A stretch of 64,000 bases of DNA, from the sequence record PQ850622.1. One strand, 5' to 3'. A model generated the notes under the pieces. That model saw only the letters and a program-made list of their open reading frames with translations. It was not told the DNA's origin and did no database searches. Shown one piece after another: positions 42,977 to 45,914 of the stretch. A program made the translations under genes and the position numbers. How positions within the stretch are numbered: position 1 is the first letter of the stretch; each line of letters starts with the position of its first letter. The stretch is from Escherichia phage OliverMaurmann_Bas86.

Positions 42977-43624
42977 TTAACTCTCCAAAGTTTTCTTCAA
43001 AGCTGCCCATGAGATTGGATAGAGTTTAGCCATCTCTTCATCTAATGACTGAGCAAATAGTCGAACTTCATATTGAGCATGGGATGATAGTCGTTGACGA
43101 CACAATTCAAACCAGCCATACAAGCTACCAGTCCAGTACCAAGTAGTTACCATACCTTGAGGTAAAACAAATCTAGCTTGTTCAGGAGCTACGAACTTAA
43201 TCAATTCGTCATAACTAGCAAGAGATGCCTCGTACGCAGAGTTAAACAAAGCTAAAGCTTTTGCCTCTTCCTCCCCTTCAAGAAGTATTCCAGAACCAGA
43301 ATGTAGATCATCTGGACGGGAGAAGATTTCTTTAGGTATGAAAATATCCACTGCTCCATCTTTATATCTACGACTCATCTCGTTCCAAGAAAAACCAACT
43401 TGATGCTTCTGTAACTGTCGTGCAATTGCTATAGGAGCTTCGCATCTGAAGCTCGCTTGTGGGTGACGAAAAGGACTTACGTGTCGTTCCCGAGCTAGAA
43501 AATTTATTAGACGAGTGTCACTTTCTTTTAATTCTTCCCTTTCTACCCCCATAGTTACACGAGCAGCATTGACTACTGTAAGATCTGAACCGAAGTTATC
43601 AATTAATGAAGCTTTGATTGTCAT
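42977..43624 (-). CDS. thyX: Flavin-dependent thymidylate synthase (ThyX)-like protein, divergent signature
   Basis: 215 aa; collinear with ThyX but the RHR....S motif reads KHQVGFSWNEMSRRY. Confidence 0.7.
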   Translation of the reverse strand: MTIKASLIDNFGSDLTVVNAARVTMGVEREELKESDTRLINFLARERHVSPFRHPQASFRCEAPIAIARQLQKHQVGFSWNEMSRRYKDGAVDIFIPKEIFSRPDDLHSGSGILLEGEEEAKALALFNSAYEASLASYDELIKFVAPEQARFVLPQGMVTTWYWTGSLYGWFELCRQRLSSHAQYEVRLFAQSLDEEMAKLYPISWAALKKTLES

Positions 43625-44090
43625 TTATGTAAGTCTCCTTGACTTTATTATATTCCCTAGAGGCTTCTTCTATGGTTGAGAAGAGTCCTATGTGCTTAGA
43701 TTTAAATACCGCCCGGTAAGCAATAGAGCCACTTTTCCTTCTATGGACAGTCACTCCAATCACTCCGGTTGATAAATTATTACTCTGAGCTACTTTGTTT
43801 AGGCCATTTCCTGATCTAGTAGTCCCCCTAAGATTCTCTCTTTTGTTGTTTATCCTGTTGCGGTCTATGTGATCTACTTCTTCAGGAAGCAATCCAGTGT
43901 CCCACCAGTAAGCAAGTCGATGAGCGTAGTATCTAGCACCTTTATAAACGATTCTCAAATACCCATTGGTATTTACAGAACCAGCTATAGACCCTTTGTG
44001 TCCTTTTCCATAAGTTTTAACCCATCGGAAATCTCCAGTCAAAGGGTCGTAATCAAGAGCTTCTTTTATTGACGGGTCAATATCATTCAT
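43599..44090 (-). CDS. HNH homing endonuclease (HNH_3 + AP2-like)
   Basis: 163 aa; YDPLTGDFRW, GYLRIVYKGARYYAHRLAYWW...VDHIDRNRINN. Confidence 0.75.
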   Translation of the reverse strand: MNDIDPSIKEALDYDPLTGDFRWVKTYGKGHKGSIAGSVNTNGYLRIVYKGARYYAHRLAYWWDTGLLPEEVDHIDRNRINNKRENLRGTTRSGNGLNKVAQSNNLSTGVIGVTVHRRKSGSIAYRAVFKSKHIGLFSTIEEASREYNKVKETYINDNQSFIN

Positions 44091-44571: not shown

Positions 44572-44757
44572 TTACAGCATAACAAGAACGATAATAAGAG
44601 GTAGTGTTATAGCAAAATGTACCAGAACAACACTACCTAGCTTGATAGCTTTAACATCCTCTTCTGCTGGGTTTTCTTTAATTGCTAAATTTCGAGCTTT
44701 ATAGATAATAGTACCAACTATTAACGACCACACGGCCCACACAACCAATGAAATCAT
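44572..44757 (-). CDS. Small two-TM membrane protein
   Basis: 61 aa; two hydrophobic segments separated by a charged loop. Confidence 0.45.
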   Translation of the reverse strand: MISLVVWAVWSLIVGTIIYKARNLAIKENPAEEDVKAIKLGSVVLVHFAITLPLIIVLVML

Positions 44758-44766
44758 ATCAAACCC

Positions 44767-44946
44767 TTATGCAGTCAGAAGGTGAAGCAGGAATGGGATA
44801 ACAACAGCTACGACAACCATGATGGTTGATGCTGTTTGAATCTCACCTTTCTTGTCAGGGGTTTCTTCAATAAGCTTACCAGAAGCCCAATAGATACCAC
44901 CGCCAATAAAGATAGCCCAAATACCCCATACGATTGCTGATAACAT
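44767..44946 (-). CDS. Small two-TM membrane protein (59 aa), paralog of 44572-44757; absent from ORF track
   Basis: MLSAIVWGIWAIFIGGGIYWASGK... parallels MISLVVWAVWSLIVGTIIYKARN... Confidence 0.4.
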   Translation of the reverse strand: MLSAIVWGIWAIFIGGGIYWASGKLIEETPDKKGEIQTASTIMVVVAVVIPFLLHLLTA

Positions 44947-45007
44947 ATATCTATATCCTTATAAATGAGTTCGCCCCACCTCGGGTTAGGAGACAGGGCG
45001 GAGGTTT

Positions 45008-45583
45008 TTAGTAAGACACATCACCACTTGAGTGGGACATGTTGCTCTTGACGAAGTAACAGAACTTGCCAAGACCTTCATTAATTTCTTGAAGCATACT
45101 CTGGTCCACTGGATAGGTGCACAAGTCTGAATCAAACTCATCCATCTTCTCAATGATACACATAAGAGTCATGCACATGTCGGAAAGCATACCGTCCATG
45201 TCGAGATCAGCGTTACCTTCTCGGAACCAAGCATGGCCTAAATAATTACTAGCAGTAGCATCCACTTTAACACAATGAAAGCGCATACGCTCTGCTATTC
45301 GGTCGCCTGCCTCACGAGCATAATCTTCTAGTTCATCGAACATACCATGAACACCTTGGAAACCAGCTCCAGAGACGTTCCAGTGGTAGTTCTTTGCTTT
45401 GATGTGTAGAAGTTCAAGGTTAGCTTGCACACCACACAAGATGTGTTCTAAGCTGTTACCGCTAATCAGTTTATTCATTCCCTCAAGACGAGAGATAGAA
45501 GAGTCAGTAGTAGAGAATGGGTTGCTAGAACCCACTCGTGTTAGTTCTGGTAAGTCGAAGACATTATTATGCATTAGGTGCAT
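45008..45583 (-). CDS. Dps/ferritin-like protein
   Basis: 191 aa; KNYHWNVSGAGFQGVHGMFDELEDYAREAGDRIAERM matches the Dps ferroxidase-region pattern. Confidence 0.5.
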   Translation of the reverse strand: MHLMHNNVFDLPELTRVGSSNPFSTTDSSISRLEGMNKLISGNSLEHILCGVQANLELLHIKAKNYHWNVSGAGFQGVHGMFDELEDYAREAGDRIAERMRFHCVKVDATASNYLGHAWFREGNADLDMDGMLSDMCMTLMCIIEKMDEFDSDLCTYPVDQSMLQEINEGLGKFCYFVKSNMSHSSGDVSY

Positions 45584-45914
45584 CCCCTTCTAAGTTAGTT
45601 GAATTAGCTACATTACGAGCAATGTTATCCATGACCTGCTGGGTAATAACAATGCAATTCTGTGGGTCTACAGACTTAGAACGCCCCATTTCAGGGTCAT
45701 AAACCTTAACACGCTTGGCTGTTGAGCCAGTAACTTGCAACACTTTGAGAAGATAACCTTGGTTTCCAATAGACCATGCAACAACATCACGATTCTTGAT
45801 ATAACGACCAAGCATATCACGATGATAGAACTGCTGCATAACTTTAGCTTTGCTAATCTCTTCAGATGGCGGGGCCACTTTACTCAAATCTAACATAACT
45901 CTCTCCTGTTTCAT
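45567..45914 (-). CDS. Hypothetical protein
   Basis: 115 aa ORF. Confidence 0.4.
   Translation of the reverse strand: MKQERVMLDLSKVAPPSEEISKAKVMQQFYHRDMLGRYIKNRDVVAWSIGNQGYLLKVLQVTGSTAKRVKVYDPEMGRSKSVDPQNCIVITQQVMDNIARNVANSTNLEGDAPNA

Follow-up and report, generated by a model that had tools for sequence, protein, structure and literature searches.

The closest described relative of the gene studied here is CDS67 of phage SU10, which was reported in 2014 as a DPS-domain protein among the middle genes and was conserved in all five C3 phages sequenced by then (PMC4281155). That the protein is made has been established in the literature: mass spectrometry in SU10 detected CDS67 at 35.8% coverage together with its partner CDS68, the ortholog of phrog_10984, in a sample which also contained the DNA polymerase, PhoH, a sigma factor and thioredoxin (PMC4281155). 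In 2021, a Dps homolog was detected in CsCl-purified virions of phage Privateer, and the homologs in Kuravirus were noted in the same paper (PMC7881722). A cryo-EM and mass spectrometry study of SU10 assigned only gp20-24 as ejection proteins and leaves the Dps protein unmentioned, so that a role as structural component of the virion is not supported by that work (PMC9509320); taken as a whole, the evidence for virion association is weak. Lactobacillus phages, 'Gratiaviridae' and other gut phages are also described as carrying Dps genes, and papers on the Dps genes of other phages propose the management of iron and peroxide. In our search of the literature, no phage Dps turned out to have been studied by biochemistry or genetics. 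The presence of such a gene is already known, as the Kuravirus Dps gene was described in print in 2014 and identical proteins are deposited in GenBank.

In the present study we analysed a window of 64,000 nucleotides from Escherichia phage OliverMaurmann_Bas86 (PQ850622.1), in which the first-pass annotation had placed a Dps/ferritin-like protein at 45008-45583 with its strand missing. The open reading frame is real and lies on the minus strand; its longest form (45008..45583) begins with ATG and encodes 191 amino acids. The window comes from a Kuravirus-like podophage of E. coli: the 10-kb region round the gene is 89-96% identical to phages of this kind, such as PAS59, SU7, Bas87 and ECBP2, and a protein of 100% identity is found in Bas87 (XPK40323.1, labelled 'DNA binding protein') and in vB_EcoP_HC-25922.

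Regarding the gene start, the true initiation codon is probably that of Met4 (ATG at 45574..45572), which gives a probable coding sequence at 45008..45574 on the minus strand with 188 amino acids, about 21.1 kDa, a pI of 4.8 and a net charge of -14. The equivalent methionine is the start in every gene call of the database homologs, and the M4 column is invariant in the alignment. A Shine-Dalgarno-like AGAAGGGG, read from the sequence at 45584..45591 (minus strand) within the 3' end of the upstream gene, directly touches the first ATG but stands 9 nt upstream of Met4. The Met4 start is thus favoured because the homologs start there and the ribosome-binding spacing of AGAAGGGG fits it.

The gene belongs to a long operon on the minus strand. 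On this strand no sigma-70-like promoter was detected, and the sole terminator-like match lies inside the coding region, in a count at chance level. In the 61-nt spacer past the stop codon (44947..45007, minus strand) an 11-bp hairpin with no T-run after it is possible, and the 76-nt segment 44940..45015 folds with a minimum free energy of -18.9 kcal/mol; the value is not significant (z = -1.74; 13 of 200 shuffled sequences fold equally well), and the hairpin is probably not meaningful. As a separate observation, TAATGTAG occurs at 45608..45615 on the minus strand inside the partner gene, 25-32 nt upstream of the first ATG and 34-41 nt upstream of Met4. It is like tAATGTAt, an 8-mer which with one mismatch is expected many times by chance in 64 kb. 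The SU10 paper gives tAATGTAt as the motif of late promoters for the phage sigma factor (PMC4281155).

Membership in the Dps family (PF00210, superfamily IPR002177) is confirmed by matches far beyond chance. The Pfam model PF00210 (Ferritin) matches at E=7.3e-8 and scores 32.9 bits, above its gathering cut-off of 24.5, only residues 59-102 being aligned, and the same assignment is precomputed for all 38 of the 38 database homologs. With PHROG 3636, which bears the label 'DNA binding protein', residues 40-184 align to profile positions 3-149 of 149 at E=9.8e-53. Searched alone against the PDB, the protein matches about 50 solved structures of Dps; the best is M. smegmatis Dps2 at E of about 1e-9, and most of that match falls in helices A and B. 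An alignment was then built from 27 sequences of the phage clade, ranging from 98% down to 26% identity, and its profile matches B. anthracis Dlp-2 (1jig) at E=3.2e-27 from end to end, with profile positions 27-164 covering chain residues 3-142 of 146. Among the 60 matches listed in this search, about 50 are Dps proteins. The NCBIfam Dps equivalogs were all below cut-off, namely NF006975 (34.7 bits against 114), NF041388 (31.1 against 170) and NF052461 (17.4 against 300). By these scores the phage protein is a divergent member of the Dps family and not an ortholog of E. coli Dps.

The fold prediction agrees with this assignment. An AlphaFold2 monomer model, built on the 27-homolog alignment, has a mean pLDDT of 83, with the core mostly at 86-98. 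The Dps core, as delimited from the model, Foldseek and the profile comparison with the PDB, comprises residues 49-180 (45044..45439, minus strand), and the model helices are A (45-69), B (76-102), BC (111-116), C (129-149) and D (158-180). The predicted topology is that of Dps, a four-helix bundle whose long B-C loop carries a short BC helix and which lacks an E helix as a fifth. In Foldseek against the PDB the best 50 matches are all Dps subunits, with target-normalised TM scores of 0.72-0.92, the leading ones lying at 0.80-0.92, and rmsd mostly of 1.2-2.4 A. The Dps/ferritin-like identity proposed in the first-pass annotation is therefore borne out by Pfam Ferritin, PHROG 3636, the PDB Dps profile matches and the AlphaFold model; that annotation had named two findings which would speak against it, a lack of match to Dps profiles and a lack of a predicted ferritin-like fold, and the searches gave the opposite in both cases. 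Apart from this, the Foldseek search of BFVD returned three entries of uncultured Caudovirales named 'prohead protease' (A0A6J7XDU5, A0A6J7WPK9 and A0A6J7WIS1; 333-763 aa), in which a Dps-fold region is matched at E=2e-5 to 1.5e-3, and several entries named 'DNA-binding protein Dps' there have lengths of 290-680 aa. Such long proteins could carry capsid-targeted ferritin-like domains, reminiscent of encapsulin cargo.

The ferroxidase centre of Dps is an inter-subunit site: one subunit supplies two histidines, from its helices A and B, and the two-fold partner supplies an aspartate and a glutamate from helix B, together with a neighbouring aspartate and a tryptophan. The peptide YHWNVSGAGFQGVHGMFDELEDYAREAGDRIAERM, earlier read as the ferroxidase-centre region, covers exactly this part of the phage protein (residues 66-100; 45284..45388, minus strand): the ligands H67, H79, D83, D94 and E98 and the residue W68 all lie within it. 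These six residues align to H51, H63, D67, D78, E82 and W52 of E. coli Dps and to H31, H43, D47, D58, E62 and W32 of Listeria innocua Dps, in the same order of H67, H79, D83, D94, E98 and W68; the register of both reference sequences agrees with the published numbering. Among the 27 homologs, with identity down to 26%, H67, H79, D94, E98 and W68 are present in all and D83 in 26, so the ferroxidase centre is, to judge by its residues, intact. The gene is under strong purifying selection, with a pairwise dN/dS between Kuravirus subgroups of about 0.06 overall and of 0.22-0.24 in the N-terminal extension. A degenerate or non-catalytic ferritin fold is rejected in view of the invariant ligands and the dN/dS of about 0.06.

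In other respects the protein departs from the textbook Dps. As to charge, the N-terminal 48 residues have a net charge of -2 (one Lys and two Arg against two Asp and three Glu) and the C-terminal tail, with no K or R at all, of -1, within a whole protein of net -14. The Lys/Arg-rich tail of DNA-binding Dps of the E. coli type is thus absent, in composition, from both ends of the protein, and on that basis binding of DNA by a lysine-rich tail, as in E. coli Dps, is improbable. Since that tail is lacking, the 'DNA-binding protein' label which is common for this gene in phages is unsupported.

The pore is altered as well. We take D121, D126 and D130 of Listeria Dps to form the acidic three-fold 'ferritin-like' iron-entry pore, which is typical of the family and not strictly defining. 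At the start of helix D in the phage protein, P158-V-D-Q-S162 (45098..45112, minus strand), the acidic residues are replaced: the column of Listeria D126 holds Pro in 22 of 27 homologs, that of D130 holds Asn in 17, Ser in 9 and Asp in 1, and D121 aligns to a column which is variable in the phage clade. The nearby D160 and E165 might substitute for the lost acids, and with the canonical residues replaced the uptake of iron could be slower or differently routed.

Moreover, the protein has an N-terminal extension of about 45 amino acids (residues 4-48; 45440..45574, minus strand), for which the model is mostly of low confidence and predicts a single helix, at 29-41. It is restricted, in the 27-homolog alignment, to the Kuravirus-like subclade, and within it the motifs MHNNxFDLP and SxxRL[ED]xM are conserved. 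There are six cysteines in the protein and as many as ten in some of its homologs.

The genomic neighbourhood is that of replication and nucleotide metabolism. The minus-strand middle operon runs through a gamma-glutamyl cyclotransferase, a primase/helicase, the exonuclease subunit of the polymerase, a nucleotidyltransferase and a dCTP deaminase to four small ORFs, the last of which is the partner phrog_10984, then to Dps, three small ORFs and thioredoxin, and then to two more small ORFs, an HNH endonuclease, ThyX and eventually the DNA polymerase. The position of the Dps gene in this replication module is the same in Kuravirus, Privateervirus and Libingvirus, and Proteus phage Privateer and Aeromonas phage BUCT695, both of Grimontviridae, have the same module with Dps at the same place. 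Directly after the Dps gene, BUCT695 carries a full-length nrdD, the gene of anaerobic ribonucleotide reductase (L003:5471-7948), in addition to GrcA, and Privateer carries an nrdD remnant of 297 nt (L002:5398-5694), which suggests an ancestral link between Dps and this oxygen-sensitive enzyme. In the Kuraviruses nrdD is absent, and no other annotated iron enzyme was found there that would indicate a specific need.

The gene directly upstream, phrog_10984 (45567..45914, minus strand; probable start Met7 at 45896), has a stop which overlaps the Met4 start of Dps by 8 nt (ATGCATAA), an arrangement that suggests translational coupling of the two genes. Its homologs stand at the same place in the relatives with 34-38% identity (L002:4639-4923 and L003:4702-4971). 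Over the 13 C3-podophage loci compared, phrog_10984 is upstream of Dps in all and abuts or overlaps the Dps start in 11, the other two being Salmonella-type loci (L011 and L012) in which it lies about 1.1-1.35 kb upstream; beside the unrelated phage Dps genes (loci L014-L020) it is absent. The two genes may form a functional pair. The partner protein has no Pfam match, and its AlphaFold2 model from 17 homologs is unusable (pLDDT 44.5, pTM 0.26). A link with defence or anti-defence was also considered and is rejected, as PADLOC gave no match for either the Dps protein or phrog_10984.

Two further features of the module were observed in passing. Directly downstream of Dps there are two tandem paralogous ORFs of about 60 aa (44767..44946 and 44572..44757, both on the minus strand), which match phrog_9296 (E=4e-34 and 1e-28); both are hydrophobic, which suggests small membrane proteins. 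Between thyX and thioredoxin, an HNH endonuclease ORF of 163 aa (43599..44090, minus strand) overlaps the start of thyX, and more HNH genes are scattered across the related Bas87 genome; these genes look like homing-endonuclease insertions in the replication module.

At the level of phage genomes at large, tblastn found the subfamily in 133 of 50,697 records, namely 92 from Escherichia, 11 from Aeromonas, 8 from Proteus, 7 from Salmonella, 6 from Cronobacter, 3 from Shigella and 2 from Synechococcus phages and 4 named only 'phage', and at E<=1e-10 only 12 representative clusters were found among 1.84 billion proteins, which leaves it isolated in sequence space. A probe with E. coli Dps reached about 130 further phage records with other Dps genes, mostly from phages of Streptomyces, Lactobacillus and Clostridium. 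The earlier remark that a Dps is unusual in a phage is thus right in so far as the subfamily is confined to those 133 records, but about as many again carry other Dps genes, and within its own lineage the gene belongs to the core set and has been in print since 2014.

As to its origin, the identity to Dps of the host E. coli is 39% over 41 aa only, which rules out a recent capture of the host dps; such a capture is also contradicted by the best solved relatives, which are Dps proteins of Actinobacteria and Firmicutes at 24-26%. These comparisons make it an old lineage-specific gene rather than a recent acquisition from the host. We also observed that the ortholog is annotated as 'integrase' in several Kuravirus records (such as IME267, E20-1, EcoN5, DE5, XT73 and EC.W14-3) and in UniRef. 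This label is a propagated mis-annotation and is wrong, because the protein is a Dps-fold four-helix bundle.

What the protein does for the phage can be proposed from these data. The first-pass annotation had suggested that it could shield replicating DNA against oxidative damage or manage iron. We consider it reasonably probable that it forms a Dps-type cage for detoxification of Fe2+ and H2O2 during phage replication. The subunits would assemble into a hollow cage, presumably a dodecamer, and Fe2+ would be oxidised, preferentially by H2O2, at the ferroxidase centres between two-fold-related subunits; the oxidised iron would be stored as a ferric core inside the cage, and both Fenton reagents would in this way be removed while the phage DNA is replicated. 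The benefit may be to make up for a host which is unable to induce its own Dps/OxyR response after the phage has taken over transcription. We count in favour of detoxification, besides the fold, the conserved ligands and the purifying selection, the thioredoxin gene nearby, the adjacency to nrdD in Grimontviridae and the kept position in the module, and we count against it the replaced pore residues and the lack of another annotated iron enzyme in the Kuraviruses. Each of the three rival explanations is less well supported. That the protein is mainly one for binding or condensing DNA, coating or compacting the replicating phage DNA or the host nucleoid and so giving it physical protection, with iron chemistry as a secondary matter, seems unlikely. 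Some cellular Dps proteins do bind DNA, the gene is placed in the replication module, and PHROG 3636 and most GenBank records read 'DNA binding protein'; these labels, however, are carried over from the family name. The Dps proteins known to bind DNA do so by way of basic tails or a basic surface, whereas the phage protein is strongly acidic (net -14), with one Lys in its N-terminal 48 residues and none in its C-terminal tail, and a coating of DNA would not need the strict conservation of ferroxidase ligands. An iron store or buffer for the metallo-enzymes of nucleotide synthesis, with anaerobic ribonucleotide reductase as the candidate client, would account for Dps adjoining nrdD in BUCT695, which also has GrcA, and the nrdD remnant in Privateer, and the gene would then be a leftover in the Kuraviruses lacking nrdD. 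Those phages nevertheless keep Dps under strong purifying selection, Dps cages are poor donors of iron compared with ferritins, and adjacency within a collinear module is weak evidence, for which reasons we regard this explanation as unlikely.

It is likewise improbable that the cage or its subunits are cargo of the virion, enclosed in the head or travelling with the particle and delivered at infection, where they would shield the entering DNA or bring in iron. The detection in CsCl-purified Privateer virions (PMC7881722), the joint detection with CDS68 in SU10 preparations (PMC4281155) and the Dps-like folds among 'prohead protease' proteins of uncultured phages in BFVD can all be cited for it. 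Against this, the polymerase, PhoH, sigma factor and thioredoxin in the same SU10 preparation speak for carry-over of abundant non-structural proteins, an iron-loaded cage of about 250 kDa plausibly co-purifies with phage particles, the gene is a middle and not a late one (PMC4281155), and gp20-24 are the only ejection proteins assigned in the cryo-EM and mass spectrometry study (PMC9509320). A more speculative thought, to which we give little credence, is that of a remodelled nanocage, in which the catalytic centre is kept, the acidic pore is lost, and an extension with the look of a docking element (MHNNxFDLP ... SxxRLExM) would act with the coupled phrog_10984 in a two-component or virion-carried device; the idea arises because mass spectrometry found both SU10 proteins and the Privateer homolog, which could suggest such an arrangement.

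For the annotation of these genomes, our analysis mainly confirms and tidies what exists, and 'Dps-family ferroxidase (mini-ferritin)' would be a better-fitting name than those in use. What is more general is that a lineage of virulent coliphages keeps a Dps with a predicted intact catalytic centre, under strong selection and across two phage families, which suggests that iron and peroxide stress genuinely constrains the replication of phages. The remaining interest lies in the altered pore, the N-terminal extension and the conserved, translationally coupled partner gene. Experimental work on a phage Dps is now practical, as the BASEL phage collection of E. coli isolates includes Bas87, which encodes the identical protein.

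Compared with the known systems, the locus is nearest to SU10 CDS67 and the other phiEco32-like (Kuravirus) orthologs, which are the same gene at the same position with 82-100% identity; the predicted structure of CDS67 is also the same (BFVD A0A0B4N267, E=5e-22), and there is no difference of substance. The copy in the window belongs to the subgroup of ECBP2, KBNP1711 and Bas87, which is about 84% identical to that of SU10 and NJ01, and the differences between the two subgroups are mostly in the N-terminal extension. The cellular proteins with which we compared it are M. smegmatis Dps2 (2z90/4m35), B. anthracis Dlp-2 (1jig), S. aureus Dps (2d5k), L. innocua Dps (1qgh) and E. coli Dps (1dps). 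The phage protein shares with them the four-helix bundle with its BC helix and the inter-subunit H/H/D/D/E ligands with Trp, at TM scores of 0.8-0.9. It is no more than 20-26% identical to them and, unlike them, is encoded by a virulent phage; Pro and Asn or Ser stand in place of the pore Asp residues, and it has six Cys and a non-basic N-terminal extension of about 45 aa without a Lys-rich tail. Among phages, Privateer, 7-11, SE131 and the Aeromonas LAh group carry a Dps of the same clade, and the homologs of Grimontviridae, at 34-43% identity, lack the extension and adjoin nrdD. Other clades are found in the Lactobacillus plantarum myophages, the Streptomyces phages of about 130 kb, Clostridium phages and the 'Gratiaviridae' gut phages. 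As a query, the window protein finds almost none of the Dps genes known from phages of Streptomyces, Lactobacillus or Clostridium, which suggests that these were acquired separately; common to all of the phage Dps genes compared is a place near the genes of replication.
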